Part shown: positions 32,261-63,173 of the stretch, in pieces
Layout of the letters: each line of letters starts with the position of its first letter
Position numbering within the stretch: the stretch's first letter is position 1
Source: a bacterium
GTDB lineage: Bacteria > Krumholzibacteriota > Krumholzibacteriia > G020349025
Reading direction: 5' to 3'
NCBI GenBank assembly: GCA_031362565.1
Contig: JANLSU010000106.1
Coordinates: forward strand, 32,001 to 96,000
DNA: 64,000 bases
Notes under the pieces: model-generated
What the model saw: the letters and a program-made list of their open reading frames with translations, nothing else
Database searches by the model: none
Told to the model about the DNA's origin: nothing
Made by a program: the position numbers and the translations under genes

Positions 32261-32438
32261 TGCCACAGGGCCGGGGTCCCTACCGTGCCCTCCAGACGTG
32301 CGGGTCGAGAGCGCGCCGCGCCGGCGCGCAGGCTCTCTGCAACGTCGAGATTCACATCGTGGTGACGGCTGGTCCGTCACGCGGGCGCGGCGCAACTTTG
32401 GGGTGCCGCGCAGCATGTCGAAAGGAACGGTAGGCTGC

Positions 32439-41680: not shown

Positions 41681-41736
41681 ACCGGGAGCCAACCACGTCT
41701 GTACGCGGGAGCGTCAAAGTGTCGATCGGAGTTTTG

Positions 41737-43692: not shown

Positions 43693-43708
43693 GGGCATGC
43701 TCTTTGCG
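43693..43708 (+). promoter_or_regulatory. Candidate sigma54 (-24/-12) promoter
   Basis: GGGCATG-CTCT-TTGCG: GG(43694-95)-N10-GC(43706-07), close to TGGCACG-N4-TTGC. Confidence 0.55.
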
Positions 43709-43904
43709 CGACGACCTGCACCGGGGCCCTTGGCCGCACCCTCGACGTGTGGCCGGGAAACCGGCGGGTCGTTCGCGCCCCGACGCTAAATCCCTGCGAC
43801 GCATGAACTGGGTCGAGCCACGCGTCGATGGCCGCCAGCAATCCCGGAATAGCGCATCGCACCTTCCGGGATTCGTGGTTGCGTCCCGCACAGGGAGTTC
43901 GCGA

Positions 43905-46900: not shown

Positions 46901-49900
46901 GGGTTTGGCGACGACCGGTGCATTGACGGTCACTGCCGGCACGCCCGCGTCACTCGTTCTCGAGCGGGCGCCCGGCGATCCATTCGACCCCTTCGACACC
47001 ACCGCACTCGCGGCCGGCGATTCCGTCGAGGCCTACGCGGTGCTGCGCGATGGACTTGGGAACTGGGTGGGCAATGTCGTCGCAACGTGGAGTGTTCTCG
47101 GGAGTCCCACGAGCGCGATCTTGAATCCGACCGCGGCGGGTGGCGTTGCGCTGCAGGCGCGCCATCCGGGAAGCGTGCGTTTGCAGGCGACGTGGAATGG
47201 CCGCGACGCGGTGAGCGGGACAATCGATCTCGGCGCCGGCGCGCCCGCCGGTACGTTTATGATGAGCTTGACGCCCAACACCCTACGGGCCGGTGGACCG
47301 TTGCCGGCGCTCGGCAACGGTGGCCCCGTCACGGACGCATGGGGCAATGACGTCGCCGACGGCACGCGCATCGATGTGCGTTTGACGGGCGCCACGGGTC
47401 TCGCCGGCGAGGATCTCGATCCGGTGCGTGCCGGCGTGCAGCGCCCGACGAGCGCCGGGCACTTCGTCTTCACGCTCGTGCCGGGCGCCCTTGCGGGCCC
47501 GGCGACCGTCGATGCAACGGCGGGGACGGCGGCCGGCCGAGCGGCGATTGCCTTGTTGCCGCCGATCGGCATCGGCGTGCTGGCGGGATCGTTCACGCCG
47601 ATCGAATGGTTGCGTGGCGCGCCGTTTGCAGCCCACTTGACGCTCGTGAATCCCGATGTGCTGGCGCTCGACCTCGCGACGGCAGAACTGCGGTTGGACG
47701 ACGGCAACGGTGGCGCGATTCAAACCTCACTCGCCGCGCCGGTCACGCTCCAGCCGGGCATGGCAACGGGTGTCGATTTTGTGTCGCTCGATACGCCCGG
47801 CGCGCTCCGCGCCGGACGTTACACGCCACGCTTGCACGTCACCGGCCAGGACCAGCTGGGGTCGCCGTTCGATCTCGAGATCGGCACCGCCGGTGCGACA
47901 CTCGATCTGGTGGATGGCGCCGTGACCCAGGTGACCGGCCATGCGCCGCTCCGCCTGACGCAGGGAACGCCGGTGCACTTCACCGTCGATGTTCTGAATA
48001 GCGGCGATGTTGCCGTGCAGCTCGATGCGGCGCGTTCGCTCCTGCAGGGCGGCGCGTTCGCGGCGGCGCTGGCCCCCGGGAGTGCCACGACGCTCGCCCG
48101 CGGCACTGTCACCCGGCTCGATTTCGTCACCACCATTTGGCCGCTTGGCGCGACGGTGGGGGATGTGCCGCTCGATCTCGAACTGCACGGCACCCAAACC
48201 GGCGGCGCCTTCGATGCGTCGGTGGCGAGCGGCACGGTGCGCGTCGATGCGACGGCGGCGTTGATCGCCGACAAGGGTGCACTGACGCCCGTCCTGGTGC
48301 CGCAAGGTGCGAGCCCGGCGCCGCGGATCACGGTGCAGAACGCTGGTGGCAGTGCCGTGACCCTGAATACCAACACGCAAGTGCAAATCGCCGGCCGCGC
48401 CGGTGGTCTGGTGACACCGGTTCGCGTCGGACCCGATTCCGCCGCGATCCTCGATTTCGCGCCAGTGGATCTCGGCGGCCTGCCGGCCGGACTGTACTCG
48501 GTGTGGTTGTCGGCACAGGGGACGCAGAATGGCGCCGCGTTCGCGCAAGATGTCGCCTTGGCCGACAGCCTCACGCTGTTTGCGCCGGCGGCGCTCACCA
48601 TCTTGGGGATTCAGCCGAGCCAGGCGACGGTCACGGCCGGGCAGACCGCGTCTTGGCTGCTGCGCGTCGTGCTGTCGAATAGCGGTGCGACAGCATACCG
48701 CATCGATGCAGCCGATGTGCACATCGTGTTGGGCGGCATCGACCGCACCGCGACCTACACGATGACGCACCAAAAACCCTTTACCAGCGCGTTGCCACCC
48801 GCAGCCCGGGATACGCTCGATTTCTTGGTGACACAAACCGGCCCCGATGCTGGACTCGCGACTCTCGAAGCCGCGGTGCAGGCAACCGATCTCACCACCG
48901 GACTGCCCGTCGAGGCCAACACGTTCACGGCTGGAAAGGGCAGTCTCCGGGTCCAGAACCCGGCGATCGCCGCGGCGGGCGTGTTGACCCTGTCGCAGCC
49001 GGCCGTCGTCGCCGGCCAAACAGCGCCCGTGGAAGTGACGCTCACGGTGCGCAACGCCGGTGAAGCGATCCTCGATCTCGATCCAGCGTCGCTCGCGGCG
49101 AGCTTTGTCACCGCGCCGGCGATCGCGGTCGTGCCGGCGAGTTACACCGGCGGGCCCGGGCTCGCAGCCGGTGAATCGATGCTGCTGCGCTGGACCTTGG
49201 GCCCTTTCACCGCCGCGCCCGGCAGTCTGCAGTTGACCGCGACCCCGCAATTCGTGGAACGGAATCGCGCCGCGTTGTTGACCTGCAGCGCGAGCACCAA
49301 CGTGCCGGTGCAAGGGCCGGCGGCGGTCGTTGTCAGCCAGGCCAATGCGCCGGCGAGCGTCACCGTGGCACAGGCGCAAGCTTGGACGGCGCGCTTCCAA
49401 CTCACGAACTCCGGCGGCAGTAGCGTGACGGTCGCGACACCGCGCCTCGTGTTTGCGGCGCCGGGCGCCGCGACGACGTTCGGGGTCACGCCACCGCTCA
49501 CCTTCGAAGACGGGCGGCCGTTGCAGCTCGCACCAGGTGCGCAGGGGACTCTCGCCTTCGTTATCAACCGAACCGATGCGACGGCGCGCCGGGTCACGAT
49601 CGGCGTCGCGTGTGACGCCGTCGAAGAACTCTCGGGACGCGCGTTGACGATCGCCAACGGTGCGACCGCGACCGTGAGCGTGCAAGCGCCACCCGCCGTG
49701 CAGTTGGTGGATGCATCCCTCGCGCCGGCGCGCGCCGCGGTGGGCCAGGTCGTGGGGTTCACGCTCGATGCCCAGAATACCGGTGAGTCGCGCTTGGATC
49801 TCGATGCAACCCAGTCTTGGGCCCGGCTCGTGGATGGCACGACGCTGCATTCGTTGATGGCGCCGGCAGTGCTCCCAGGCGGCGGGACGGCGACGCTGCG

Positions 49901-52900
49901 CTTCGCTGCGGCGGCACTCGATGGGGCTCCGGGCGCCGGGGCGCTGCGCCTGCACCTTGCCGGCACCGAGAACGGCAATGCGTGGAGCGCCGATCTCTCG
50001 ACCGGCGCCGTGCTGCGGCTCGATGCGGCCGCCCAACTCGAAATTACCGCCGTGCGCCCCTCCCGGCCACGCGTCACTCGCCGGCAAACTGTCGCTTGGA
50101 CGGTGCGGGCGGCGGTGCGCAATCATGGCGGCGATGCGGTGCTGGATGCCGCAACGCTCGGATTCACGCTCGGCGCGGCGGACGTCGCGACTGGGTTCAC
50201 GGTCACCGCTCCGGCCCACTTCGAATCCGGCACCACGCTCCTGGTTGCCGGTGCAGCTGACACCTTGCGCTTCGACGTGACGCGAACTCTGGACGCCATC
50301 GGTCTGGTCGCTCTGGACGCGACGCTCCACGCCCACGATGCCAATAGCGGCACGCCGCTCGTGGTGACGAGCGTCGGTCAGGCGCGTGGCAGCGTGCAGA
50401 TCGATGCCCCGGCAGAGCCGGTCATTGCCACCCTGCAAGCGAGTCAAGCGCTCGTGAGTGCCGGTCAACGATCCGCGTGGCGCGTGCAAGTCACGGTGCG
50501 CAATGACGGCGGGTCGCCGTGGCGCGCCGACTGGACACGCGCGGCGCTCGTGCTCGGTGCGGCGCCCGATGACAGCATTGCCTGTGGAGCACCGGCCGCA
50601 CCCCAACTGTTGGATGCCGGCGAGTCCGAAGGCGCGGTCTTCACGATTCACCGCACCGGCGCCGAACTCGGCGCCGTCGGACTCGTTGCAAGCCTGCCAG
50701 GTGTCCAGGAATCGGACGGCGCGGCGATTGCCGCTCTCCCGAATGCGCCGGTCACCATCGTCGTGCAGCGTCCTGCCGCGGCCAGGCTCGAAACCGCGAC
50801 GGCGCACACCCAGCGCCCCGGCACTGCCAACACCGGTCAAACCGTCCGCTTGGACATCACGGTTCGGAATAGCGGCGAAGCCGATCTGCGGCGTGTCGCC
50901 GTACAGGCGCACGCGGATGGTGCGACCCCGGCGGACAGCCTTCTCGTTGCGGCTGTACCGGGCGGTGGAAGTGTCACGTTGCACTCCCAAGTGCGCTTAC
51001 GTGACGATGCCGGACCGGCGGCGATTCAATTCACGGTCCTGGAAGCGTACGATGCCAACGATTCCTTGACGACGGCCGCCTTCGGTGCGACCACCGCGGC
51101 CCACCTCGACTTGCGCGCCGAAACGCCCGGCAGCTTGGCGCTGACCCTGGTTCCGAGTCAGGGGCGGGTGTCCGCCGGACAGGCGCGCGAGTGGTCGCTG
51201 GCCGTGCAGGTGGAAAATGTCGGCGAAGAACCGCTGGTGCTGCGCGCGCCGCGCCCGAGCGATATCGAGTTCCAGCGCAGCAACGTCCCGCAAAGCGACT
51301 ATGTCGTGTTGGCGCCCGCCGCTTTCGACGAAGGCGGCCTGACGCTCGCCGGCGCCGGCCAAGGGACGCTGCGCTATCGGATCACCCGCACCGGTGATGG
51401 CGGCGGCAGCATTGCGATCACGGCCACGGCGAGTGCGCTGCACGCCAACGATGCCACCGCCCCCGACATGGCAGCCACCGCTGCCGCGACGATCGCCGTC
51501 GATGCAGAACCCAGTTTGCGAATTCTCTCGACCGATACCCGGACCTGGCGCCGGGACCGCGGTTTCGACGACGACCGCGTCGATGCCGGGCAGGCCTTCG
51601 CGGTGCGCGTCGTCGTGGAAAATACCGGCGGCACCCAACTGGACAGCATCGGCGTCGATGTCGAGTCGCAGCGCGGCAATTCGCATCTCGATGGCCGGCG
51701 CTGGCTCGACACGCTCGCACCGGGACAGCGCGGCGAATTGGAGTTCGCGGTCGTCGGCGGCACTTGGTTGTCGCAGCCCGGCCTGCCGGAAGCTTTCACG
51801 GCGCACATCGCCGCCGCCCAGGATCTGAACACGGGCATCTCGGTTCTGCCCGGCGCGGCCGTCGACGCCACGACTTTCGCGTATATCGAGACACCCGCAC
51901 AGGTCGCGCTCACGGCCTGGATCGACGCTCCCGATGGCGCTCGCGACGGCGTTCTCTCGGCCGCCCAAGAGTTCATTCTCGCGGCGCGGCTCGACAACGA
52001 GGGCAGCGCGGATTTCTCGGCGTCCGGGCGTGTGGCGCTCGGGTTGCCGGCCGGATATGCCATCGTCGATGGCGATCCAGAGCAATTTGCCGACGCCGGC
52101 CAAGTGATCCGGTGGACGTTGCAGGCCGGAGCGGCGGCGCACGCGTTCAGCGATACCTTGGTCATTGCGCTGGCCGCCGTGCCGCTCGACGAGAATCGTG
52201 GCACCCCAGCGATCGTGCGGGTTGGCACGGCGACGGTCGCCGTCGCGGTGCGCGCCACCGGTGATCTGGCCGCCCTGCTGACGCGTGGCGGTGCGGCGGC
52301 GGGTGGCTCGATCTTCGTTTCAACGGGTCAGACGCTCGACCTCGATGTTGTCGTCCGCGGCGATGCCGACTTGATCGGCCGCGAAGCGGATCTGGTGTTG
52401 CCGGCCGGCTGGTCGCCGGCACCGGGGAGTCCGCCGAAACTCGATCTGCCACCGGGCGCCGAAGCGCGTACGACCGCAGCCGTGCAAGTCGGTCATGCGC
52501 CAGGCATGGCCCAAGTCATCCTGCATGCAACCGCCGTCGACCGGAACGACGAATCGCCGCGCGCCGCGCTGGATACCCTGCAATTGCAAGTCGTTCGCGC
52601 CGCACGGCTGGCGGTGGATGCGGCAATCGTCGCGCCCGACGAGGCGCGCGATGGGCGGCTCCTGCCGGGCCAAGCGTTTCAAGTCCGCGCCTGGGTGCGC
52701 AACCAGGGTGACGCGGCGGTCGTCGCGGCGCCGGGGAATACGTCCGGCGGCACGCTCCGCCTCATCGACGTGCCCGCGGGGTACGGCGTGCAGGCCGCCG
52801 AACAGCCGTACGTCCTGACCGGCCGTGAAGCGAGCATCACGTGGAATCTCACCGCGCCTCCGGTCGTGCGGCCGGGTGCGGAGACGATGCGGATCGTTTT

Positions 52901-53768
52901 CGCCGCTCTGCCGTTCGACGCCAACGCCATGCAGGCCGTCGGGCTCGATCCGGATTCGACGATCGCCCGTTGCGTGGTTTCGGTCGCCAACGACGCGGTT
53001 GCCGTCGACGCTACCGCCGAGCCAGCCACCGTGGTGGCGCCGGGCGAGCGCGACGTCACGCTCTTGCACCTGCTGATCACCAATCAGGCTGAAGCCGCGG
53101 TGCGCATCGACGCCGTCGGTGTCGCACCCCTTGCCGACGGCGTCATTCTGCCCGATGCATTCGCCCACTACGTGCTGACGCGCGACGACGATGCGGCGAT
53201 CCGCGTCGAAGCGCTGCCGTCCGGCAGCTCCCCGGTCTGGATCGATTTCGGCGCCGCGGGCAATGCGGCGATTCTCGCGCCGGGCGCCACGGCACGTTGG
53301 ACGTTGCGCGCCGACATCGCGACATCGGCCGCGGCGCGCACCGTCAGTGCGGCATTGCGGACCAACGCCGCCGGTGCAGTGCTCGTACGGGCCAGTGAAT
53401 CGAGCTCGGGCGCCGCGGTGCCGGTGCACGCCGATGCACGCGCCACGCTGGCGTCGGCAGCGGTGCGGGTTTTGGGCGCCGCGCTCGCCGCATACAACGC
53501 GCCGAATCCGTTTCACGCCGAACGCGAACCGACCACCATTCACTACCAAGTGGACGGCGCGAGTGATGTCACGATCCGCATTCAAACCCTGCAAGGCGCC
53601 CTCGTGTGGGAAACGCACCGGCACGAGGCTGCCGTTGGGACGGCGCTCCGCGGCGTCGAATGGGACGGCCGGAACGGCACCGGACAGCCGGTACGGAATG
53701 GTGTGTATGTGTGCTCCGTGCAAGTCGGCACGCGGGCGACGCGGTTCAAAATCGCGGTGACCCGCTAG
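43905..53768 (+). CDS. Giant (~3,290 aa) secreted Ig-repeat surface protein with FlgD-Ig/T9SS-like C-terminal domain
   Basis: GTG/TTG start after AGGGAG (ORF open from 43704); signal ending SAGAQ; ~11 repeats with DxxGN...WS, then CARDB-like V.N.G repeats; tail YNAPNPF...WDGRNGTGQPVRNGVY...KIAVTR. Confidence 0.88.
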   Translation: MLDFLSRRWSLWIVGAAIVLAGRSAGAQGFLSLRIETAPGGNAPDLASTTRVAGDSLRLFAATYDFLGFYAGPAAVDWSIIPGGATLDATQGTTTLVQTSLTGQFHVQAVMDGTTADTGNITVVPGPPSGLAAFASPAFGAPAITSLALSADSSLVLYTGSYDKFSNWTGPIDVAWSLDAPIAAVTPSHATLTVLDPRRTGNGHLWLDAPSLPRLDLPLAVTHGRIASLLVSTTPGGTPLADTTLVAGQTLHLEARAADADGNSVTPFAGATWSATGTGLALGAVNGVQTDALASLPGSARIVATAGAIQTSTGIIRITAGILARLRVSRAPDTYVAVDPATVDADQNFELFALGQDAAGHWLGPVSATWTSTDAAVLHSPTTTGPSAVVDCARIGTARLRLTGAGLAPDSTGAVQVTPGRFARLTIESLGDGTGSEMGALGFSADSVIAFHAVGRDADGNFVGARNALWSLTGPIGSLSTPLGPDVVLLGEHPGTALLTAVDGIETDVAGPITVTAGAPYRLRAEDSLGLALAPRALAPGETASAVAMTLDRDGNQLTAAPVTWGWLGDALALLPGSAAPQYNWTAGRVGQGRLVLAAPGLMADTSATFTVVAGSPARLEMRDALGLPVGARTLSCDALLELHAWALDGSGNELGQVPVTWSVLGTAGSATVAPLAGSATVLRPVTPGVVRVAALHGSGVQAQSGDLTLVPGQITRVTIETAADGSGSRLASRGLAAGDLLPLFAVGRDGQGNFVAPVNANWFESGGIGTLSVTQGTATILLAEHRGRGRVTLTVPLIDGDETGILDVTPGPVAALGIERSPAGPADALGTATVSVDDSLMAFAVVRDVFGNWIATVPAFWSVTGPAGAAQISSPGPATATVLRPQHPAQVQLTATWNGFAALSGPLALVVGRLATVGIETAADGSGFAIGNRTLGAGEVVALYAIGRDALGNLTGAVTAAWSVVGIGGTLDTAWQSAARFTADRPGLCHVTAAYPGVGLATTGALTVTAGTPASLVLERAPGDPFDPFDTTALAAGDSVEAYAVLRDGLGNWVGNVVATWSVLGSPTSAILNPTAAGGVALQARHPGSVRLQATWNGRDAVSGTIDLGAGAPAGTFMMSLTPNTLRAGGPLPALGNGGPVTDAWGNDVADGTRIDVRLTGATGLAGEDLDPVRAGVQRPTSAGHFVFTLVPGALAGPATVDATAGTAAGRAAIALLPPIGIGVLAGSFTPIEWLRGAPFAAHLTLVNPDVLALDLATAELRLDDGNGGAIQTSLAAPVTLQPGMATGVDFVSLDTPGALRAGRYTPRLHVTGQDQLGSPFDLEIGTAGATLDLVDGAVTQVTGHAPLRLTQGTPVHFTVDVLNSGDVAVQLDAARSLLQGGAFAAALAPGSATTLARGTVTRLDFVTTIWPLGATVGDVPLDLELHGTQTGGAFDASVASGTVRVDATAALIADKGALTPVLVPQGASPAPRITVQNAGGSAVTLNTNTQVQIAGRAGGLVTPVRVGPDSAAILDFAPVDLGGLPAGLYSVWLSAQGTQNGAAFAQDVALADSLTLFAPAALTILGIQPSQATVTAGQTASWLLRVVLSNSGATAYRIDAADVHIVLGGIDRTATYTMTHQKPFTSALPPAARDTLDFLVTQTGPDAGLATLEAAVQATDLTTGLPVEANTFTAGKGSLRVQNPAIAAAGVLTLSQPAVVAGQTAPVEVTLTVRNAGEAILDLDPASLAASFVTAPAIAVVPASYTGGPGLAAGESMLLRWTLGPFTAAPGSLQLTATPQFVERNRAALLTCSASTNVPVQGPAAVVVSQANAPASVTVAQAQAWTARFQLTNSGGSSVTVATPRLVFAAPGAATTFGVTPPLTFEDGRPLQLAPGAQGTLAFVINRTDATARRVTIGVACDAVEELSGRALTIANGATATVSVQAPPAVQLVDASLAPARAAVGQVVGFTLDAQNTGESRLDLDATQSWARLVDGTTLHSLMAPAVLPGGGTATLRFAAAALDGAPGAGALRLHLAGTENGNAWSADLSTGAVLRLDAAAQLEITAVRPSRPRVTRRQTVAWTVRAAVRNHGGDAVLDAATLGFTLGAADVATGFTVTAPAHFESGTTLLVAGAADTLRFDVTRTLDAIGLVALDATLHAHDANSGTPLVVTSVGQARGSVQIDAPAEPVIATLQASQALVSAGQRSAWRVQVTVRNDGGSPWRADWTRAALVLGAAPDDSIACGAPAAPQLLDAGESEGAVFTIHRTGAELGAVGLVASLPGVQESDGAAIAALPNAPVTIVVQRPAAARLETATAHTQRPGTANTGQTVRLDITVRNSGEADLRRVAVQAHADGATPADSLLVAAVPGGGSVTLHSQVRLRDDAGPAAIQFTVLEAYDANDSLTTAAFGATTAAHLDLRAETPGSLALTLVPSQGRVSAGQAREWSLAVQVENVGEEPLVLRAPRPSDIEFQRSNVPQSDYVVLAPAAFDEGGLTLAGAGQGTLRYRITRTGDGGGSIAITATASALHANDATAPDMAATAAATIAVDAEPSLRILSTDTRTWRRDRGFDDDRVDAGQAFAVRVVVENTGGTQLDSIGVDVESQRGNSHLDGRRWLDTLAPGQRGELEFAVVGGTWLSQPGLPEAFTAHIAAAQDLNTGISVLPGAAVDATTFAYIETPAQVALTAWIDAPDGARDGVLSAAQEFILAARLDNEGSADFSASGRVALGLPAGYAIVDGDPEQFADAGQVIRWTLQAGAAAHAFSDTLVIALAAVPLDENRGTPAIVRVGTATVAVAVRATGDLAALLTRGGAAAGGSIFVSTGQTLDLDVVVRGDADLIGREADLVLPAGWSPAPGSPPKLDLPPGAEARTTAAVQVGHAPGMAQVILHATAVDRNDESPRAALDTLQLQVVRAARLAVDAAIVAPDEARDGRLLPGQAFQVRAWVRNQGDAAVVAAPGNTSGGTLRLIDVPAGYGVQAAEQPYVLTGREASITWNLTAPPVVRPGAETMRIVFAALPFDANAMQAVGLDPDSTIARCVVSVANDAVAVDATAEPATVVAPGERDVTLLHLLITNQAEAAVRIDAVGVAPLADGVILPDAFAHYVLTRDDDAAIRVEALPSGSSPVWIDFGAAGNAAILAPGATARWTLRADIATSAAARTVSAALRTNAAGAVLVRASESSSGAAVPVHADARATLASAAVRVLGAALAAYNAPNPFHAEREPTTIHYQVDGASDVTIRIQTLQGALVWETHRHEAAVGTALRGVEWDGRNGTGQPVRNGVYVCSVQVGTRATRFKIAVTR

Positions 53769-53772
53769 GAGG

Positions 53773-55689
53773 ATGATGATGCTGGCACGGAAGTCCTGGA
53801 TCCTACTCGCGTGCATGCTCGCGACGACCGCGCATGCCGGCGGCACCGCCAATGGCGGGACCGAATCGAATCTGAGCTTGGGAGCCACGAGCCGCGGGAT
53901 CGGACTCGGCGGCGCGTTCCTGGCGAGCGTCGACGACGCGAGCGCCGTGTACTGGAATCCGGCCAAGCTGGCGAGCCTCGAACGCGGCAGCGTCATTCTG
54001 ACTCACATGCCGATCGGCTTCGGTGACGCGACTCTGAGTTTTGCCGGCGTCGCGTATCCGACCCTCGGTGCCGGCACGTTTGCTTTCGGGTTCCAGCACC
54101 TCTCCACCGATGGCATTCAGGCCTACGACGCCACGAGTCAGGCGCTCGGCAGCCTCGAATATTCGGAGACCGCGCTCTATGCCGGTTATGCCCACGCGAT
54201 CGCCGCCGGCACGCTGGGTGCGCTGCAAGTCGGCGCGACCGCGAAGACGTTCACTCAAAGTCTAACGCCTTGGTCGAGCACCGGCGCCGGACTCGACTTG
54301 GGTTTGGCGTGCACGCCGCGCCGCTTTCCGGATCTCGGCTTGGCGTTCGTGTGGCGGGATGCGATCGCCCCGCATGTGCGGCTCGATCAAACCTCGGATG
54401 CCGCACCCGCGACATTGCAATTCGCCGGCACCTGGCGGACCCGCGCCACGCGTACGACAACGCTGGCGCTGAACGCCGGTGTCGATCACACCGGCCCGCT
54501 CGGCTGGTCGCCACGCCTCGGACTCGAAGCCGGTTATGGTTCGCATCTGCAGTTGCGGCTCGGTTCGTCCCGCAACGGCGTCGCCTTCGGCCTCGGCGTG
54601 ACCTGGCAGAATGCGGCGCTCGACTATGCATTCCTGGGCCACGAGTCGGCGGCCACCCAGCCGGTCTCGGTGCGCACGGAGTGGGGCATGCGGCTCGAAA
54701 ACCGCCTCGCGGCGCGCACGACGGCGCGCGAGGCGGCGCTGCGGGCGCAATTGCAAGACCGGCTCGAGGCCCGCCTCGATGCGGCGCAGGCGGCATTCGA
54801 TCGTGGGGACTATGCGGCAGCGGTGGACGAGTGGAAGGTCGTGGCCGGGTTGGATCCCGCCGACGAACGGGCCGAGCGTGGCATTCAAGCCGCGGGTGCC
54901 AAGCTGGCGGAAACCCAGGCGCGCGATCTCGCCGATCGCGAACAGGTGGCGGCGCACACCGCCCAGTTCGAACTCGGGCTGCGCTACTACGGCCAGAGCG
55001 AGTATGCGTTGGCGCGCGACGTGTGGGCGCAACTGCGCCAGCAGGACCCGGCCAACACCGAAGTGCAACGCTATCTGGACAAGAACGAGAAGGCGTTCCG
55101 CGACCAGCTCCGGGCCCAATCCGACGAAGCGCACCGGCTCGAAATCGCCGGCGACTGGGTCGACGCACTCGCGGCCTGGACCCGCATTCGGGCCACCGAC
55201 AATCAACGCGCCGACGCCGAAGCAGCGCTCGAACGCTGTCGCATGGGGCTCGAACGGCAAAATGCCCGCCGCTGGGATGCCAGCCGCGGCTCGAATGCGA
55301 ACGTCAACGCCGGTACCAACGCCATCGCCAAGGCGGCGCCGGTATCGAAAGCCGCCGCCGCACCGTTCCGCGACGCCGTCGCGGCGTATTCGAGCGGTGA
55401 GATCAGCCGCGCCGTGACGTTGTTGCGCGAGGTTCGCCGGTTGGATCCCGCCAATCAGGAAGCCGAGCGCTTGTTGGCGAAAGCCGAGCGCCAACTGCTG
55501 CCCTTGGGTGACGAGGATCGCGCCCGGGTGCGCGAGATGTACCTGCGCGGGATGAGTTTCTTCACCGCCAATCAATTCGACAAGGCGATCGAAGCCTGGT
55601 CCAAGATTCTCGATGTCGATCCGGGCAATACGAGCGTGTACCAGAACATCCGCGAAGCCCGCGCGCGCCTGCGTGCCCTGCAGCCTTGA
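53773..55689 (+). CDS. PorV/PorQ-family barrel fused to C-terminal TPR repeats
   Basis: AGGAGG RBS; RGIGLGGAFLASVDDASAVYWNPAKL; LDYAF; TPR helices (LDP..ERA, LDPANQEA, AIEAWSKILDVDPGN). Confidence 0.88.
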   Translation: MMMLARKSWILLACMLATTAHAGGTANGGTESNLSLGATSRGIGLGGAFLASVDDASAVYWNPAKLASLERGSVILTHMPIGFGDATLSFAGVAYPTLGAGTFAFGFQHLSTDGIQAYDATSQALGSLEYSETALYAGYAHAIAAGTLGALQVGATAKTFTQSLTPWSSTGAGLDLGLACTPRRFPDLGLAFVWRDAIAPHVRLDQTSDAAPATLQFAGTWRTRATRTTTLALNAGVDHTGPLGWSPRLGLEAGYGSHLQLRLGSSRNGVAFGLGVTWQNAALDYAFLGHESAATQPVSVRTEWGMRLENRLAARTTAREAALRAQLQDRLEARLDAAQAAFDRGDYAAAVDEWKVVAGLDPADERAERGIQAAGAKLAETQARDLADREQVAAHTAQFELGLRYYGQSEYALARDVWAQLRQQDPANTEVQRYLDKNEKAFRDQLRAQSDEAHRLEIAGDWVDALAAWTRIRATDNQRADAEAALERCRMGLERQNARRWDASRGSNANVNAGTNAIAKAAPVSKAAAAPFRDAVAAYSSGEISRAVTLLREVRRLDPANQEAERLLAKAERQLLPLGDEDRARVREMYLRGMSFFTANQFDKAIEAWSKILDVDPGNTSVYQNIREARARLRALQP

Positions 55690-55715
55690 TCCCGCCCTTC
55701 CTTTGGAGCATCGCT

Positions 55716-58700
55716 ATGAGCAGTCGCAACGGACGGACCGAGCGCCTCGAGATCGCCGCCGACGAGCGCCATCTCTCGGACGTTCGCGACTTCATCGATC
55801 GCACCTGTGCCGCGTGTGGCTTTGCGCCGCGGGCGATCGCCAATATCCGGCTGGCGGTCGACGAGGCCTGCACCAATGTCATCAAGCACGCCTACCCGAA
55901 TGGCGGCCCCGGTGCGGCAAGCGCCAGGCTCGGCATCGCGGCCGGCGCGCACCGCGGCTGGCTCGAGGTGCGCATCGTCGATCAAGGCAAGCCGTTCGAA
56001 GGCCAGATCGACCTGCCCCAGCTTGGCGAACTGGTGGAAGCGCGACGCAAGGGCGGCTTCGGCATGTTCCTGATGCACCGGCTCATGGACGAAGTGCGCT
56101 ACGAAACGACCCCGGCAGGCAACGAATGGATTCTGCGCAAGCGCCTGCCGCAACCGCCTTCGACCTTTGCGCGGCGCATGCGCCTGCGTTACGCGCTGCA
56201 GGCGAGCCTCGGGATTGTCGCCATCAGCGTCTTGGCGGTCACGCCACTCTGGCTGCGCGAAGGGCGCCAGCGTGAGCGCGCCGACTTGCAGGCACTGCGG
56301 GCGCTGGCTTTCGGTCTCGCCGAAGCGGCGCGGCCGGCACTCGTACAGCGCGCCGAACTCACCCCCGAGCAAACGCATTTGTTCGAGGCGGTACTGGCGC
56401 TCGGGCGCGAGGAGCCACGCATCCTGGCGGTCGATGTCGTGGATCGCGCCGGAACGATTTGGGCGGCGGATCGCGCTGCCGCCACCTTCACCCACTTCAT
56501 CGAACCGGCCGGCTTGACGGCGGCCGATGCCGACGGGTTCCGGCAGGCGCGCGAGCGCGTCGACGGGCACGCGGTCCTGCATCTCGCAGTGCCGGTGCGG
56601 ATGGGCAACGGCGCGACCGAAGTCGGGACGGTGCATCTCTCGGTGCGCCGCGACGAGATCGAGGCCGAAGTGCGCGCCGCGCGCGCCCGCTTGGCAAGTG
56701 GGGCACTGGCCGTGGATGCGCTGGCCCTGCTGCTCGTCGGCGCCGCCCTCACGGCTTTCCTGCGGCCCTTGCAGCGGCTCGTCGACGGAGTTCGCGGCAT
56801 GGCGTCCGAAGGCGCTGATTTGGCGGAAGACGGCCCCGGCGAGATCGGTTCCATCGCGGCGGCCTTCAACGACATGAATGCCCGTTACAAGGCCGCCCGC
56901 GAAACCGCCGCCGACCACGAACGCTTGCAGCAAGACCTGCAGGTCGCGCGCGAGATTCAGACGGCGATTCTGCCGCAGCACGTGCCCGACATTGCGGGCT
57001 ATGAGATTGGCCGCTTGTACCGGCCGGCCGGCGAAGTCGGCGGCGACTACTACGATTTCTTGGATGTAGGCGACGGGCTGACCGGCGTCGTCGTGGCGGA
57101 TGTCGCCGGCAAGGGCGTGCCGGGGTCGCTCGTCATGGGCATGTTGCGGACGGCTCTGCGGCTCGAAACCCGGCGCAACGCCAGCGCCGGCGACGTGCTG
57201 TCGCGTCTGCATCAATTCCTCGCCGCCGACATGCGCAAGGGAATGTTCGTGACGATGTTGTACGTGGTGCTCGACACGCGGCACCGGGTCGTGAGCTACG
57301 CTTCGGCCGGCCACACGCCCATGGTGCTGTATCGCGCCGGCAAGGACGAAACCTTTTGTTTGTCGCCCAAGGGACTGCCGGTCGGCCTCGCCGGATCGGA
57401 CACCGCAATGTTCGAAAAGGAACTCGACGTGGAGCGTCTGCGGCTGCGGACCGGTGATCTTTTGTTGCTCTACACCGACGGCATCACCGAGGCCACCAAT
57501 GCAGCGGGCGAGGCGTATGGCGAAGAGCGGCTGGTGGCGGCCGTCAAACGCTTCGGGCGCGAATCGGCGGACGATTTCGTTCGGGCGCTCGAGGCGGACC
57601 TCGCCGAGTTCACTGGCGGTATGGCGCTCACTGATGATCTGACGCTGGTCGCGATCAAGGAGAAGCAGGGAGCGCCGGAAGTCGGCGGCGAAACGTTTCG
57701 CAAGCTCGTTGACGCCATCGACGCCAAAGGTGTGCCGGTGGCGGATGCGTGCCGGCGGTTTGGCGTATCACCCTCGACCTACTATCGTTTGAAGCGCGTC
57801 GCGGGCGATGACAGCGAACCGCAACAGTTGTCGATGGAAAAGGGTGCCGCACTTCGCCGTCTGGCCATGGCGCGCCGCGACTTGGGTGCGCGCGAGATCG
57901 CCGCTTTGCTGCGCACCCCGGAGTGGGGCAGCATCGACCTTGCACCGACGCGCATCCACGTCGAATTGCGCCGCATGGGAATCGACCTGCCGGTGAGTGC
58001 AGTGCCGGCGATGCCGGCGCCGGGTTCAGCTGCGGCGCTGCCGATGGCGGATGACACCGCAACCGAAGCTCCAAACAGCAACGGCGCCGACAGCAGCGCG
58101 GTTGCGATGTCGGAAACATGGCTCGATGCAGGCGGATTGCGCGGTCTCCTTGCAGCGCCGGCCGCCGGTCCGGGCGCCGCGCTGTTGCAACTCGAGGGTT
58201 GTATCGACAGTACGTCATGCGATGCGCTGGAGAGCCTGCTCGCGACGGCAACCGGTGCCGGTCACGCTCTGGTCGTCGATCTGGCCGAAGTGGCGTACGT
58301 GAGTAGTCGAGGCTGGGGCCTGTTGGCGGCCGCGAGTGCGCGCGCCGTGGGTGGCTTGGCGCTCGCCGAGATGCGTTCCGATGTCTTCGACGTCTATCGA
58401 ATGCTGGGTTTCGAGTCGATTGTACCGTCCGCGGCCGACCGCGATGCGGCGCGGGCGCGTCTGTTGCCGGCGGCTCGCAAGGCGGCTTCGAATGCATCGC
58501 CCGGCGCCGCATCCAAGTCGAAGGCCGCACCCACGACGGCGATCGTGCCGTGCAAGGTGGCGTTCGATGCCGCCGCCCCGGACGATGCCGGTGCGTCGCT
58601 GCGCTGCCGCGTTGGGCACGCGGGGCGCGATGGGGAAGTGGCGGTGATCGCCCTCGAAGGCATCCTCGACACGGTGAGCGCGCAATTGTGTGCCCGGATG

Positions 58701-59519
58701 TTCTCCGAACTCGCGCTCCGCGAACGCACCGCGGTGCTGATCGACCTGTCGTGCATCGAGTTCGTGAGCAGTGCCGGTTGGGGATGTCTGACGGCGTTCG
58801 CAGCCGAGCGCGCCCGCATCGGCAGCGCCGTGCGCTTGTTCGGGATGAGCGCCTCGGTGGCGCGCATCTATGAATTGCTGCACTTGGCAGCGGTGCTGCC
58901 TTCCGACGACATCCTGGCGGACGCGTTGGTGGCCTGCGGCGCCACCGAAGTTGCAGCTCCGGCGCGCGTCGACGCGACCACGGTGGCGCCCACCGCGTCA
59001 CCAAGCCAACCGGTTGGTGCGGCGCACGGTGCTAGTGCGGTGGGCATCGAAATCGAAATCGGCGCTTTGCAGGCGCGACTCGAACCCTATGGAACCAGTG
59101 GCCGGGCGCATCGCCTGGCGCTCCGCGGCACGTGGCGTGGTGACGCGGGAGCGTCGTTCGAGGCCTGGCTCGGCGCACATGCGACGCCGGTCGACCTGCT
59201 GCTGGTCGACGGCCGGGGCCTCGAAAGCGTCGACGCAGAAGCCTGGGATGTGTTGCGCCGGCACGCCGAGAGTCTTGCGACGCACGGCGGCCAAGTGTGC
59301 GTGGTGGCGAGCGCCGCAACGGCGCCCGCAGTCGACGCCGGCCTGCACGTCCACCGTTCGGTGGTGGAGGCGCTACGCACCCAGCAGAGCCGCCCGGTAC
59401 GGCTGGAGACCGTTCGCGTCGAAGACAGCGATTTCAGCAAGGACGCGGAGATCCGGCGTGAGGGCTGGAACGCTTATGTCGACCTGCTCCGGCAGGCATT
59501 CCGAGAGGACGCCCTGTGA
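55716..59519 (+). CDS. Multidomain membrane partner-switch protein: RsbW-like kinase - TM - periplasmic sensor - TM - HAMP - SpoIIE/PP2C - tandem HTH - STAS x2-3
   Basis: LAVDEACTNVIKHAY, DQGKPF, GGFGMFLM; two TMs; PLQRL...EIG.IA.AFN.M; GGDYYD, VADVAGKG, YTDGITE, DDLT; ACRRFGVSPSTYYR; YVSSRGWG, FVSSAGWG. Confidence 0.9.
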   Translation: MSSRNGRTERLEIAADERHLSDVRDFIDRTCAACGFAPRAIANIRLAVDEACTNVIKHAYPNGGPGAASARLGIAAGAHRGWLEVRIVDQGKPFEGQIDLPQLGELVEARRKGGFGMFLMHRLMDEVRYETTPAGNEWILRKRLPQPPSTFARRMRLRYALQASLGIVAISVLAVTPLWLREGRQRERADLQALRALAFGLAEAARPALVQRAELTPEQTHLFEAVLALGREEPRILAVDVVDRAGTIWAADRAAATFTHFIEPAGLTAADADGFRQARERVDGHAVLHLAVPVRMGNGATEVGTVHLSVRRDEIEAEVRAARARLASGALAVDALALLLVGAALTAFLRPLQRLVDGVRGMASEGADLAEDGPGEIGSIAAAFNDMNARYKAARETAADHERLQQDLQVAREIQTAILPQHVPDIAGYEIGRLYRPAGEVGGDYYDFLDVGDGLTGVVVADVAGKGVPGSLVMGMLRTALRLETRRNASAGDVLSRLHQFLAADMRKGMFVTMLYVVLDTRHRVVSYASAGHTPMVLYRAGKDETFCLSPKGLPVGLAGSDTAMFEKELDVERLRLRTGDLLLLYTDGITEATNAAGEAYGEERLVAAVKRFGRESADDFVRALEADLAEFTGGMALTDDLTLVAIKEKQGAPEVGGETFRKLVDAIDAKGVPVADACRRFGVSPSTYYRLKRVAGDDSEPQQLSMEKGAALRRLAMARRDLGAREIAALLRTPEWGSIDLAPTRIHVELRRMGIDLPVSAVPAMPAPGSAAALPMADDTATEAPNSNGADSSAVAMSETWLDAGGLRGLLAAPAAGPGAALLQLEGCIDSTSCDALESLLATATGAGHALVVDLAEVAYVSSRGWGLLAAASARAVGGLALAEMRSDVFDVYRMLGFESIVPSAADRDAARARLLPAARKAASNASPGAASKSKAAPTTAIVPCKVAFDAAAPDDAGASLRCRVGHAGRDGEVAVIALEGILDTVSAQLCARMFSELALRERTAVLIDLSCIEFVSSAGWGCLTAFAAERARIGSAVRLFGMSASVARIYELLHLAAVLPSDDILADALVACGATEVAAPARVDATTVAPTASPSQPVGAAHGASAVGIEIEIGALQARLEPYGTSGRAHRLALRGTWRGDAGASFEAWLGAHATPVDLLLVDGRGLESVDAEAWDVLRRHAESLATHGGQVCVVASAATAPAVDAGLHVHRSVVEALRTQQSRPVRLETVRVEDSDFSKDAEIRREGWNAYVDLLRQAFREDAL

Positions 59520-60256
59520 GGCGCATTGCAATTGCGGCTGCCAAGGGCGGCACCGGTAAAACCACCACTGCCGTCGCACTCGCGCACGGCCTCGCGCTGG
59601 CCGGCGAGCGCGTGTTGCTCATCGATTGCGATCCACGCCGCGACTCGAGCTTGCATTTCGGCCTGTCGCCCGAACCCGGACTCGCAGCCTGGCTGCGGGG
59701 CCGTCCGGCGCGCGTCATGGAAGTGCGTGCCGGCCTCTGCGTCCTGGATAGCGGTGGCGAGGCGCTTGCCGATCTCGAACTGACACTCGGCACCGATCCG
59801 CTCGAGGAACTGCGGCTTGGGCGCGCCCTGGACACGCTGCAGGATGTCGATTATGTGGTGCTCGATTGTCCGGCCGGCGTCGGACCCATCGCGCGCGCGG
59901 CGCTCCGCGCCAGCCACGAGGTCCTCGTGCCACTCTGCGCCGACTATTTGAGTTTGGCGAGCGCCGGCCTGCTGCTCGAGCGCCTGGTCCAGATGCGGGG
60001 CACGAACGGCGCCGCGCCACGTCTTCTGGGACTCCTGCCGACATTCTATGACGCCGACGCTCCGAGCGCCCTGAACGTCGATTCCGTGCTTGCGGAACTG
60101 CACGCCGGCCGTGTCCTCCAGACGCGCATCGCGCTTTGCGATGGGCTCCGGGCGGCACCGGCACGCAGAGGCACGATCTTCGATTGCGAACCGCTATCGC
60201 GCGCGGCGTTGGACTACGTCTCGTTGCTCGACGAGGTGCGGGCTGCCGCCGCCTGA
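59516..60256 (+). CDS. Orphan ParA/Soj-family ATPase
   Basis: KGGTGKTT, IDCDP, YVVLDCP; GTGA-coupled to upstream gene; no parB in window. Confidence 0.9.
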   Translation: MRRIAIAAAKGGTGKTTTAVALAHGLALAGERVLLIDCDPRRDSSLHFGLSPEPGLAAWLRGRPARVMEVRAGLCVLDSGGEALADLELTLGTDPLEELRLGRALDTLQDVDYVVLDCPAGVGPIARAALRASHEVLVPLCADYLSLASAGLLLERLVQMRGTNGAAPRLLGLLPTFYDADAPSALNVDSVLAELHAGRVLQTRIALCDGLRAAPARRGTIFDCEPLSRAALDYVSLLDEVRAAAA

Positions 60257-60407
60257 CCTGTCACTTCTGGAGCCATCGGGTGTCCACACGGTCGCGGCGG
60301 CGGCCGCATGGTTCTGCGTGGTGTATCGCTACGGAGTGTTCCGCGCCGCCCAAGGTCGCTGGACTAAACCTTGCTTGTAGAGCCCTCGTGGCTCCAAGGA
60401 GGTGGGC

Positions 60408-60815
60408 ATGCGGTCCCTCGAGTACAGTGTCGAGACCGTGGGTGCGAAGAAGACGATCGCGATCTTGTCGCTCGACGGTTATGTCGACAGCGCGACCTCG
60501 CTGAACATGGACGAGGCTATCGACTCGATCCTGCAGCAGCGGGTCTATCAGATCGTGGTCGATTTGACCAAGGTGAGCTATATCAGCTCGGCCGGATGGG
60601 GTGTGTTCATCAGCAAGATCAAGGACATCCGTGAGAACAACGGTGGCCTGAAGATCGCGGGGATGCGTCCCGACGTCCGCGACGTCTTCGACTTGCTCGG
60701 CTTTGGCCACATCATCGAAGCCCACGATACGGTGCAGGACGCGGTCAACGCGTTCGAAACGCAAAGCGGGCGCGACAAGCGCGAGGTCGTCACCGGCGGC
60801 CGTCGCACCGTCTGA
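60408..60815 (+). CDS. STAS anti-sigma-factor antagonist (RsbV/SpoIIAA-like)
   Basis: AAGGAGG RBS; LDGYVDS, VVDLTKVSYISSAGWG, VRDVFDLLGF. Confidence 0.93.
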   Translation: MRSLEYSVETVGAKKTIAILSLDGYVDSATSLNMDEAIDSILQQRVYQIVVDLTKVSYISSAGWGVFISKIKDIRENNGGLKIAGMRPDVRDVFDLLGFGHIIEAHDTVQDAVNAFETQSGRDKREVVTGGRRTV

Positions 60816-60971
60816 AGCCCCCAGTGATTTCTGGGCGGTGCAGGCCATCTCGAGGCCCGCACCGCCCGTCCGACGCCTCGATCCTCCTCCCCGCGACACG
60901 TAAGATCGTGTAGAGTCCCGGCACGGTGAGCGCCGTGTCAGGGGCCGACGACGGGAAGGAGGCGCTCGCGC

Positions 60972-63173
60972 GTGCTCTTCGCACTTCACTTGGCGACGCA
61001 ATCGCACTGGCCGCTCTTCGCTCTCCTGCCGGCGGCGCTGGTTCTGGCGCTCTGGGCGTATCGTCGAACCACCCCACCGCTCGCACCGCGACAACGCCTC
61101 GTACTGACGGCGTTGCGGGCGACCGCGTACGCGTGCTTGTGCCTCGTGCTCGCGAGTCCGGTTTGGAACCGCGAGCGGCACGACCCGCAGCGGGCGCGAA
61201 TTGCGGTGCTCATCGATGAGTCGGCGAGCATGTCGAACAACGACGGACCCGGCGGGCCGACGCGGCTCGAGCGGGCGCGTACCGCGCTCGGGACACTGCG
61301 GGATGCACTGCGTGGCGCGCCGGTGGATCTCGAAGTCGTGCCGTTCGCGGCGGCGCCGGACGCGCCCCAGTCTGCTGAGGCGTATTTGGCGGCGGCCCGC
61401 ACCGCCGTGGGACCGGCAACGGATCCGTTGGGAGCCATGGCGGCGACCGCCGACCGGCTGCGCGGCCAGAATCTGCAGGCCATCGTGCTGCTGAGCGACG
61501 GCCGCCCCACCCAGGGTGGTCTCGATCCCGGCTCGCGCACCGATCCGGGCCAGCCGGTTTTTGCGATCGGCCTCGGAGATTCACTGGCCGGGCGCGATCT
61601 GGCCATCGGCCGCTGCGAGTACAGCTCCATCGCTTATGTCGAAAGCGAAGCCGAGATCGATGTGCGCATCGAGTCGAGCGGCTTTCGCGGCCAAGCGTCG
61701 ACGCTGCACTTGCGCCAAGGCGAGCGCGACATTTTCTCGACGCACTTGCGCTTCGATCAGGATCGCAGCCGCGTCTCGGTGCGCGTGCCCGTGCAGTTGC
61801 ACGAGCCCGGCCGCCAGCGCTACCGGCTCGTTCTCGATGCCTTGCCGGGCGAACGGACCGAGCGCAACAACGCCCGCGAGATCAGCATCGAAGTGTTGCG
61901 CAACCGGATTCGCGTTCTGGTGGTGGCGGCGCGGCCGGATTGGGATGTGGCGTTTTGGGCCCGCGCGCTGCGCAGCGATCCCAGCGTTCGGCCGACCGTA
62001 GTGACGCAAGATGTGAACGGCGGATGGCGCAATGCCGAAGACGGCCGCGCTTTCGAATGGCCGCGCGGTGTGGCGTGGACGCGTGACTACGATCTCTACA
62101 TTTTAGGGACCCCGGGCACCGCGTGGCGCGGTGACTCCGCCAAGGAATTGCGCACCGCCGTTGAGCGCGGCAAGGGATTGCTGGTGCTGGGCGGACGTGA
62201 CGGAGTGCTCGGCGATGCGGCGTCCTTCGAGGCAATCGGTCCGCTCTTGCCGGTGGCGCGCCTGCGGGTGCGCGGGACGCGTTTTGGACAATCCTTACCG
62301 CGCCTCGCACCCCAAGGCAGGCTCCACCCGGTGACCGGTGCGCTCTTACCGCTCGCGGATGCGGCCGGCACTCTCACCGGCCTGCCGCCGCTTCTCGGCC
62401 AAGCGGACCTTGCCGCCAACGTCGGTGCCCTCACATTGCTCTCGACCGACGCCAACCCGGCGCTGCCATTGCTTGTCGTGGGGCGAGCCGGCGAAGGCCA
62501 GGTGGCGGTGGTCAACGGCTTTCCCCTTTGGCGGTGGGGATTCGCCGCCAACCCGGTCGTGCGCCAATCGGTCGGCGCGTTCACGAGCGGCATGGTGCGC
62601 TGGCTGACGCAGCCGCGTGACATTACCGCGGTGCAAGTGACGACTCCGAAACCGGTGTACGAAAGCGGTGCAGCGGTCGAGATCTACGCCCACGTGCTCG
62701 ATCCGCAATATGCACCGCTCGCCGACGCGCAGGTGCGCACCGATGTGCGGCGCGTCGACGACGGCAGCCCGAGCGGCAATGCGTTGTTGGAGCCGCGTGG
62801 CGGGCAGCCGGGCGAATACCAGGCGTCGATTCCTGGCCTGGCGGCTGGGGAGTACGAAGCCGAAGCAGTCGCGACCCACGGCGGGCGGGAAGTCGGCCGG
62901 GCACGGGTGCGGTTTACCGTCGATGCCTATTCGATCGAATTCGCCGACGCGCGCCAGGACGTGGATTTCCTGCGCGAAATCGCGGCGCGCACCGGCGGCC
63001 GCTATGTGGGGCCGGAAGCAGTGGCCGGCCTGGTGCAGGACTTGCCGCACGCGGCGCGCGACATCCTGGTGCGCAGCGAAATTGAAATCTGGAACACGAC
63101 GCCGCTCTTCGTGCTGTTCGTTCTGGTGTTGGGTGTCGAGTGGCTGATGCGCAAACGGTTCGGTTTGCTCTGA
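60972..63173 (+). CDS. Membrane-anchored VWA + Ig-like + glutamine-amidotransferase-like protein
   Basis: N-terminal TMs, MIDAS-like DESASM...LLSDG, ERTERNN, GLLVLGG, WRW, C-terminal TM ending EWLMRKRFGLL. Confidence 0.8.
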   Translation: MLFALHLATQSHWPLFALLPAALVLALWAYRRTTPPLAPRQRLVLTALRATAYACLCLVLASPVWNRERHDPQRARIAVLIDESASMSNNDGPGGPTRLERARTALGTLRDALRGAPVDLEVVPFAAAPDAPQSAEAYLAAARTAVGPATDPLGAMAATADRLRGQNLQAIVLLSDGRPTQGGLDPGSRTDPGQPVFAIGLGDSLAGRDLAIGRCEYSSIAYVESEAEIDVRIESSGFRGQASTLHLRQGERDIFSTHLRFDQDRSRVSVRVPVQLHEPGRQRYRLVLDALPGERTERNNAREISIEVLRNRIRVLVVAARPDWDVAFWARALRSDPSVRPTVVTQDVNGGWRNAEDGRAFEWPRGVAWTRDYDLYILGTPGTAWRGDSAKELRTAVERGKGLLVLGGRDGVLGDAASFEAIGPLLPVARLRVRGTRFGQSLPRLAPQGRLHPVTGALLPLADAAGTLTGLPPLLGQADLAANVGALTLLSTDANPALPLLVVGRAGEGQVAVVNGFPLWRWGFAANPVVRQSVGAFTSGMVRWLTQPRDITAVQVTTPKPVYESGAAVEIYAHVLDPQYAPLADAQVRTDVRRVDDGSPSGNALLEPRGGQPGEYQASIPGLAAGEYEAEAVATHGGREVGRARVRFTVDAYSIEFADARQDVDFLREIAARTGGRYVGPEAVAGLVQDLPHAARDILVRSEIEIWNTTPLFVLFVLVLGVEWLMRKRFGLL

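Follow-up and report, generated by a model that had tools for sequence, protein, structure and literature searches.

A probable partner-switching membrane receptor encoded behind a giant surface protein and a PorV-type barrel in a Krumholzibacteriota genome

The receptor and its fused substrates

We analysed a stretch of 64,000 nucleotides (nt), hereafter the window, from the forward strand of contig JANLSU010000106.1 (positions 32,001 to 96,000) in the assembly GCA_031362565.1 of a bacterium of the Krumholzibacteriota. The gene of interest encodes a predicted inner-membrane receptor in which a Ser kinase, a PP2C phosphatase, a helix-turn-helix (HTH) pair and STAS domains share one chain, and it follows directly upon two genes, one encoding a giant surface protein and the other a barrel with a TPR arm (Table 1). 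An initial annotation of this DNA had described the receptor, but missed its strongest features, namely the context of cargo and barrel-TPR genes, the IS481-type origin of the HTH pair and the link to a ParA. The context, made up of cargo, barrel-TPR gene and a sigma54-type promoter, is the new part of the finding.

Table 1. Features of the receptor locus, in positions of the window (aa, amino acids; TM, transmembrane segment)
Feature	Position	Strand	Basis or remark
Sigma54-type -24/-12 motif before the giant cargo gene	43694..43707	+	GGCAY-N5-TTGC
Giant Ig-repeat surface protein, ~3320 aa, with FlgD-like C-terminal domain; putative type IX-type cargo	43803..53768	+	CARDB over cut-off
PorV/PorQ-family barrel ending in a TPR arm; candidate partner of the receptor in the outer membrane	53773..55689	+	NF033709; TPR (Pfam)
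Receptor gene	55716..59519	+	1267 aa: kinase-TM-sCache-TM-HAMP-PP2C-HTH pair-STAS-STAS-remnant STAS-C-terminal helix
RsbW/SpoIIAB-type Ser kinase	55752..56141	+	aa 13-142; Pfam PF13581; N/G1/G2 residues intact
TM1 (157-175), periplasmic sCache (178-330), TM2 (331-349)	56184..56762	+	Hydropathy; structure model; Foldseek
HAMP, coiled linker and PP2C/SpoIIE phosphatase	56757..57665	+	aa 348-650; Pfam PF00672, PF07228
Bipartite HTH, homologue of the IS481 transposase N-terminus	57693..57986	+	Linker shortened and last helix lost in the window's copy
STAS1 with Ser864 (YVSSRGW)	58185..58460	+	Pfam; phospho-Ser position
STAS2 with Ser1019 (FVSSAGW)	58632..58931	+	Pfam; phospho-Ser position
Remnant third STAS	59103..59381	+	Ser to Ala; intact in relatives; alignment
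Conserved C-terminal helix D-x2-[IL]R-x2-GW-x2-Y-x3-L; candidate ParA-binding motif	59433..59495	+	Co-occurrence with ParA
Orphan ParA/Soj-like ATPase	59516..60256	+	Overlaps the receptor's stop codon
Second sigma54-like motif before the free STAS gene	60361..60374	+	GGAC-N6-TTGC
Free STAS protein (YISSAGW); likely diffusible substrate	60402..60815	+	Two genes downstream of the receptor
vWA-containing membrane protein	60972..63173	+	Conserved downstream in Krumholzibacteria- and Eisenbacteria-type loci

The receptor frame runs through all of its codons without interruption, and Pfam mapping returned the domain order first proposed, with opposing enzymes, substrates and HTH on one membrane chain. 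A protein search gave 297 matches; among the best 120 of these, three proteins match 99–100% of the length at 60% (P0002), 54% (P0004) and 53% (P0005) identity. The homologues that carry names indicate Candidatus Krumholzibacteriota. These independent full-length homologues, together with orthologues in other genomes, rule out a misassembly or frameshift joining separate genes, which had been named as a possible refutation of the fusion. The contig of a possible source run covers 52000–62000 with zero differences, but is not independent evidence.

Both enzymes appear intact. The kinase matches HATPase_c_2 with 92 bits (cut-off 27.4), and its residues E50, N54, D89, G91, G113, G114 and G116 agree with those of Bacillus subtilis RsbW (6m36), the nearest of the solved structures, in an alignment that bears out the claimed N, G1 and G2 boxes. 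All seven are nearly invariant among homologues; E50 and N54 are kept in 115 of 119, the remainder being two fragments lacking the domain and two close relatives with substitutions. Scores against the equivalogs were 54.5 of 145 bits for RsbW and 26 of 135 for SpoIIAB, both below cut-off; judged by sequence, the domain is a Ser kinase of RsbW/SpoIIAB type that stands outside these anti-sigma equivalogs. HAMP (348–387) and SpoIIE (453–648, 165 bits) each exceed their Pfam cut-offs. The metal-binding residues D444, D462, D588, D640 and D641 of the PP2C domain are all present, as the initial annotation had stated, and are kept in 119/119 homologues.

As proposed, the two TMs flank a periplasmic part, of ~155 aa. 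In Foldseek, its model (predicted local distance difference test, pLDDT, 94) matched sensors of the single-Cache/PDC type, among them WalK, DctB, CitA and DcuS, at E values from 1e-6 to 5e-4.

The STAS profile matched the receptor over the Pfam cut-off in two stretches (best 973–1062), as did STAS_2 (best 824–899). The Ser that the initial annotation had assigned to the phospho-Ser position of STAS1 and STAS2 is kept in 69/69 and 68/69 three-STAS relatives, respectively. The third STAS had been called degenerate, and this is borne out: its Ser, kept in 68 of the 69 relatives, is replaced, and a hidden Markov model of 66 relatives' third STAS aligns in register at 1160–1197 with a non-significant E of 0.17. 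It is an apparent remnant, recognised by position alone. Free STAS proteins are also encoded, with one gene downstream in the window and two in each of 14 long-form class loci, and Y[IV]SSAGW is kept in all 64 distinct free STAS proteins from the loci. Twelve of these 64, from other phyla, carry a fused C-terminal copy of the second HTH (HTH2) at E<0.01. Free STAS proteins of 215–245 aa with such a copy occur in Eisenbacteria-, KSB1- and Zixiibacteriota-type loci (L042:10448-11116, L061:6814-7503, L063:11566-12288 and similar). In a STAS tree of 92 rows and 114 columns, fused STAS2 forms one supported clade within the free STAS, and STAS1 and STAS3 branch off as a ladder on which long branches have an influence; the tree does not settle the order of the duplications.

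A kinase-to-HTH orthologue was found in 18 of 40 related genomes, 14 with the three-STAS tail and four without. Orthologue-level matches to the sCache profile (E<1e-30, one per genome) occur in 54 of the phylum's 121 genomes, and some match in 97. None of six same-family genomes holds a kinase-first orthologue, and five of them show paralogous arrangements. An alignment-based scan recovered the core, kinase-TM-sCache-TM-HAMP-PP2C-HTH, from records that bear the labels Eisenbacteria, KSB1, FCPU426, Ignavibacteria, Cytophagia and Calditrichaceae, and from a Zixiibacteriota fragment; a single-protein query of genome contigs gave no match. The tails there are absent, made of TPRs, or an acidic helical region. 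One Krumholzibacteria family has the core with no STAS fused to it, as do Eisenbacteria, KSB1, FCPU426 and records labelled Ignavibacteria. Because the core recurs in other phyla with different tails, we regard it as old and the STAS tail as a lineage-specific addition. The core tree, from which one paralogue row without the anchor motif was dropped, does not distinguish short forms that lost the tail from short forms that never had one.

The surface-protein module upstream

The PorV-TPR gene lies on the receptor's strand in 51 of 52 distinct loci holding the kinase and at least 600 nt of upstream sequence (three duplicate rows were dropped). The pairing spans Krumholzibacteriota, Eisenbacteria, KSB1, FCPU426 and records labelled Ignavibacteria or Cytophagia. 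The receptor is almost always encoded directly behind the surface-protein and barrel genes, a placing that suggests a role in reporting on this surface protein from within the cell.

As to a type IX cargo and barrel pair, FlgD_ig (at 3275–3341 of the cargo) and the barrel's PorV_fam match (87.7 bits against NF033709, cut-off 90) fall slightly below their cut-offs, and an SprA/Sov translocon homologue encoded in the same genome (C38:44174-48457) lies above its own. The cargo frame opens at 43704, and the start given in Table 1 is the first ATG past the promoter motif. The SprA gene shares its contig with rpoN, and a flagellar cluster that includes FliA lies on C33 of this genome.

Eleven paralogous loci (L125–L135) show what happens to the pairing when the enzymes move. 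The kinase is fused after PP2C in seven of them, lies in a separate frame in three and permits both readings in one; TM-sCache-HAMP-PP2C is kept with no HTH, a STAS follows downstream in 11/11, and cargo and barrel genes are present in most. Because cargo, PorV-TPR and receptor stay together with the kinase moved or separate, the barrel-receptor pairing outlasts enzyme rearrangement. The window's own genome holds two more barrel-TPR/PP2C pairs (C60:68642-72661 and C63:196-12690), which belong to the same paralogous type without HTH.

Co-folding of two sCache copies with the TPR arm (aa 305–638 of the barrel is the stretch taken as the arm) scored 0.33 (runs 0.33, 0.37 and 0.28) against 0.00 for the best control, with at least 46% of contacts common to the runs and a partner pLDDT of at least 74. 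Of 157 solved complexes, 116 reach the mark used, as do 2 of 215 mismatches; just 18 of these complexes and both of the mismatches do so at scores of 0.60 or less. The co-fold lends weak support to a modelled contact between sCache and TPR arm.

The sigma54-type pattern before the cargo gene was composed after the sequences were inspected, and agrees with the published consensus (PMC12316311). It occurs on the sense strand in 12/12 upstream loci, against a background of 0.006 per 500 nt, and lies within 140 nt of the cargo's first start codon in ten and at the beginning of a broken cargo frame in two. Since the count in the window alone is non-significant (4 against 1.68 expected; 10 of 100 shuffles), the evidence for the motif is its position across loci. 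The variant before the free STAS gene recurs in 5/5 short-form loci, and any loose match appears in 1 of 23 other regions. The genome encodes RpoN and 22 full-length sigma54 activator domains.

Further genes flank this module. Downstream of the vWA gene, a protein with a lamin-tail domain begins at 63205 and extends beyond the window (551 aa in the contig). Upstream, a cluster at 32004–42171 that is conserved in relatives encodes pyruvate phosphate dikinase, a second PorV-like protein (36938–37849) and CBM48-containing proteins, together with a protein at 34982–35647 that we take to be DUF4388-like; a weak match to the PP2C profile lies at 35223–36941.

The HTH pair and the candidate ParA partner

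The tandem HTH of the initial annotation stands as a bipartite, IS481-like module. As a Pfam call it does not, with HTH_23/HTH_28 (aa 664–694) below cut-off and the window's copy reduced as listed in Table 1. The pair forms well-ordered helical bundles in models of relatives (pLDDT 90). NCBIfam matched it, below cut-off, to the IS481 N-terminus, and tblastn aligned the two at ~30% identity over ~90% of the length, including the last helix in relatives (E 2e-3 to 1e-2; 14 of 24 records annotated IS481). With hhalign the probability was 99.4 against P0244, a fragment that is named as a transposase and has IS481 as its best plasmid matches. IS481 N-termini are themselves weakly characterised (PMC10045372). 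Foldseek with the HTH model returned nothing at E<=0.001, so its weak rows (Pax5/Pax6, TnsB, SETMAR) are not counted as evidence. On these alignments, the HTH pair is homologous to the N-terminal region of IS481 transposases. Unlike a transposase, the receptor has no integrase/rve (DDE core) match in Pfam and NCBIfam scans, and its HTH is single-copy, fixed in position, vertically conserved and set inside a signalling protein.

A profile of the HTH pair gave 148 new matches: 81 PP2C receptors, 38 fusions to family 2 glycosyltransferases (GT2), one protein with STAS and 28 fragments or other proteins, two of which resemble IS481 N-termini. Descent from one particular transposon is not supported by these matches, and the direction of transfer is one that we infer. 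The membrane GT2 proteins (P0174, P0182, P0192, P0205, P0229 and others) carry two tandem IS481-like bipartite HTHs followed by TMs, GT2 and long extracellular tails; one is labelled Patescibacteria. P0212, labelled Chlamydiales, has five repeats of HTH2 alone.

A DNA-binding output, as claimed initially, is plausible for the family and less so for the receptor in the window. The linker motif between the two HTHs is present in 69/69 three-STAS relatives, in 0/15 close relatives and not in the window's copy, and HTH2 is gone from P0008, P0010 and P0011 of the same clade. HTH1 is conserved at 77% against 69% for the kinase in three-STAS relatives, and at 55% against 58% in the close clade. The HTH module thus looks to be eroding in the window's clade.

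The ParA encoded next to the receptor has a deviant Walker A (KGGxGKT). It has lost the D-x-R arginine that is found in 17 of 18 aligned ParAs, a residue presumably equivalent to R189 of B. subtilis Soj. Soj binds DNA via R189 and R218 (10.1101/2025.07.02.662783). Among the 52 loci, ParA and a C-terminal helix with aromatic-x2-Y-x3-L occur jointly in 27 and are jointly missing from 25, and no locus has one without the other; the helix pattern was widened after inspection, and one frameshifted locus was excluded. In the core tree the split corresponds to about two clades with ParA, which have different tails, against four or five without. ParA tracks the C-terminal helix, for which ParA binding is a candidate role. 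Between ParA and the vWA gene, relatives carry a TPR gene and a second free STAS gene that the window lacks. Their TPR protein of ~375 aa (L021:5134-6252(-) and equivalents) begins with a domain that lacks annotation and is conserved at its C-terminal end, and no clear orthologue of it was found in the window's genome.

A model of the receptor and its alternatives

To our knowledge, many STAS partner switches outside Bacillus, SypA and BtrV among them, have no known output. SypE of Vibrio fischeri is, like the receptor, a kinase-first and PP2C-last chain acting on a free single-domain STAS protein, SypA (PMC10120452), and its STAS is a downstream output controlling a surface product with no sigma target shown (PMC4517449, PMC10120452). 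The receptor locus follows this order, with the kinase first, PP2C after it and a free STAS in the locus. Unlike SypE, which is switched by a central REC, the receptor has no REC match in the Pfam scan and carries TM-sCache-TM-HAMP in its place, besides the HTH pair and the fused STAS. Rv1364c of Mycobacterium tuberculosis likewise holds phosphatase, kinase and STAS on one chain, and its own STAS Ser is phosphorylated (PMC9138534); it matches the receptor in sequence over the PP2C part (3ke6). In contrast to the kinase-first receptor with two TMs, Rv1364c is arranged PAS-PP2C-kinase-STAS, has one STAS and no TM sensor or HTH, and is linked to SigF.

Over HAMP-PP2C (332–647), the best NCBIfam match of the receptor is SiaA, which reportedly has a membrane sensor architecture; the score of 66 of 700 bits is far under the SiaA equivalog cut-off. 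In the SiaA-SiaB-SiaC(-SiaD) system of Pseudomonas aeruginosa, a balance of PP2C and kinase on a STAS-like protein controls aggregation (10.1101/674879), and SiaABC is a further partner switch independent of sigma (10.1101/674879, 10.1101/2022.03.11.484041). It differs in that SiaB is a separate protein, the target is a Thr and the output is a diguanylate cyclase, an enzyme not encoded among the receptor's neighbours in the window. The receptor would work like SypE or SiaAB and is a member of neither. The upstream genes resemble type IX cargoes that travel with their own barrel (PG1035-PorP-PorE, SprB-SprF), in which a cargo with a C-terminal domain, a barrel and a periplasmic partner are also combined (PMC9143113). 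A PorV-like barrel with a fused TPR arm, paired with an inner-membrane receptor, does not figure in the abstract of that work. Orphan ParA positioners (PpfA-TlpT, ParC-ParP) similarly place a ParA without ParB beside a signalling protein (PMC9178275), whereas the cargo here would be a membrane partner-switching receptor, through a predicted contact. The initial annotation had held the full architecture to be uncharacterised. No description of it, or of such systems in these taxa, was found in open-access main texts, but Rv1364c and SypE are one-chain precedents.

The reading that we favour, at a probability of roughly 0.55, is that of an inner-membrane partner-switching receptor, comparable to SypE or to SiaA plus SiaB on one chain, which serves a surface-protein module. 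An intact Ser kinase and PP2C, with phospho-Ser STAS substrates on the chain and downstream, can be read from the sequence. A signal at the sCache of a dimeric receptor would pass through TM2 and HAMP and turn on or off the phosphatase that opposes the N-terminal kinase, setting the level of STAS phosphorylation; this control by sCache and HAMP is proposed because analogous HAMP-PP2C dimers have been modelled as linker-controlled (PMC12143880). The fused STAS copies would be tethered substrates or buffers and the free STAS a diffusible output. We consider this enzymatic core likely. What is signalled may be the condition of the giant surface protein encoded in the same locus, which the barrel's TPR arm would relay across the periplasm to sCache, and we hold the link between receptor and TPR arm only tentatively. 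Output would probably not run via a sigmaB/F-type factor. In the family, the HTH pair may bind DNA, either as feedback on the sigma54-driven operon or as a tether; the chances of a sequence-specific output are about even there and lower for the window's copy. ParA may position the receptor via the C-terminal helix, and the DNA-linked parts appear to be eroding in the window's lineage.

Several observations weigh against this reading. Gene adjacency may reflect co-regulation alone, and related loci are not independent. A co-fold pass of the kind obtained is more often wrong than right unless contact is likely beforehand. Of eight short-cargo loci from other lineages, just one has the sigma54 motif near the cargo start, and 0/6 paralogous loci have it. 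Conservation is low in the periplasmic domain (mean identity of 35% in three-STAS relatives; mean column identity of 29%), and the close relatives P0015 and P0016 have lost the N-box and G1 residues of the kinase, so that they may be phosphatase-only forms. A FliA-like sigma is encoded in the flagellar cluster, which keeps a sigma factor among the possible targets.

Foremost among the alternatives is a small-molecule sensor, a possible though doubtful reading in which sCache binds a metabolite, such as a sugar or carboxylate from the CBM48 surface cluster, and cargo and barrel are co-regulated targets without contact. It draws on the common binding of small molecules by sCache domains, whose top fold matches here are citrate, dicarboxylate and pyruvate sensors and so count against our preferred reading. 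The window, like 8/12 upstream loci, has CBM48-containing genes on the upstream side, and SiaABC of P. aeruginosa is responsive to how much carbon is available (10.1101/674879). However, the CBM48 genes are missing from four short-form loci in which the order of cargo, barrel and receptor is kept, and no invariant ligand-binding residue stands out in sCache, since a single column, a Gly, is conserved at >=90%. The weak co-fold pass leans towards contact.

The initial annotation had proposed a self-contained transcription switch, in which phosphorylation of the internal STAS gates the HTH on DNA with no free partner. Conservation of the phospho-Ser in the fused STAS1 and STAS2, an HTH1 as conserved as the kinase, the phosphorylation of its own STAS by Rv1364c (PMC9138534) and the HTH2 copies on free STAS proteins, which link STAS state to an HTH, would all fit such a switch. 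It is nevertheless improbable, as the free STAS is kept beside the fused ones, in the window and in 14/14 long-form loci, and the HTH also occurs in core forms of other phyla that lack fused STAS. The window's clade has moreover lost the linker and, in places, HTH2, and inspection upstream of the operon revealed no operator-like repeat apart from the sigma54 motif.

Similarly unlikely is a spatial scaffold, in which the receptor would be tethered or placed relative to the nucleoid by the HTH pair and ParA, as would, by way of the barrel, the site where cargo is displayed, with phosphorylation gating localisation. Orphan ParAs do position chemoreceptor clusters (PMC9178275), the strict concordance of ParA and helix arises in two separate clades, and the doubled HTH sits on membrane GT2 proteins for which a role in transcription is not obvious. 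Against this, the concordance depends on the widened pattern, on one excluded locus and on few clades, the HTH is kept in ParA-less forms, and the window's ParA lacks the arginine that nearly all others retain. A canonical anti-sigma pathway, in which the kinase sequesters a sigma70-family factor at the membrane until STAS is dephosphorylated, is very unlikely: RsbW is the nearest solved structure and the genome encodes three group-2/3-like sigmas besides the FliA-like one, but no SigB/F/G member (TIGR02980) exceeds the cut-off in that genome (best 130/234 bits), the kinase falls far under both equivalog cut-offs, no sigma factor is found among the scanned genes flanking the receptor in the window, and the operon promoter is of sigma54 type.

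Taken to its full extent, our preferred reading would describe a trans-envelope system in which a giant protein secreted by the type IX route docks on a PorV-type barrel whose TPR arm reaches the sCache of a kinase/phosphatase receptor, with an IS481-derived DNA-binding module, rather than a sigma factor, as output and a ParA of its own that positions the receptor. We regard this undescribed system, and with it its spread across uncultured phyla related to Bacteroidota, as speculative. One conserved operon joins the barrel-TPR arm as candidate input, the HTH pair as candidate output and ParA as localisation partner, and each link is thus testable with soluble fragments in Escherichia coli. The Pax paired domain is a transposase-derived regulator, and the HTH pair, if its proposed role is true, would be a bacterial parallel to such regulators, in a module that has also found separate use on membrane glycosyltransferases. 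Should the barrel contact prove real, cargo of type IX kind can signal inward, for which open-access main texts offered no description, and the trans-envelope system, if true, would be the partner-switching counterpart of TonB-dependent cell-surface signalling.

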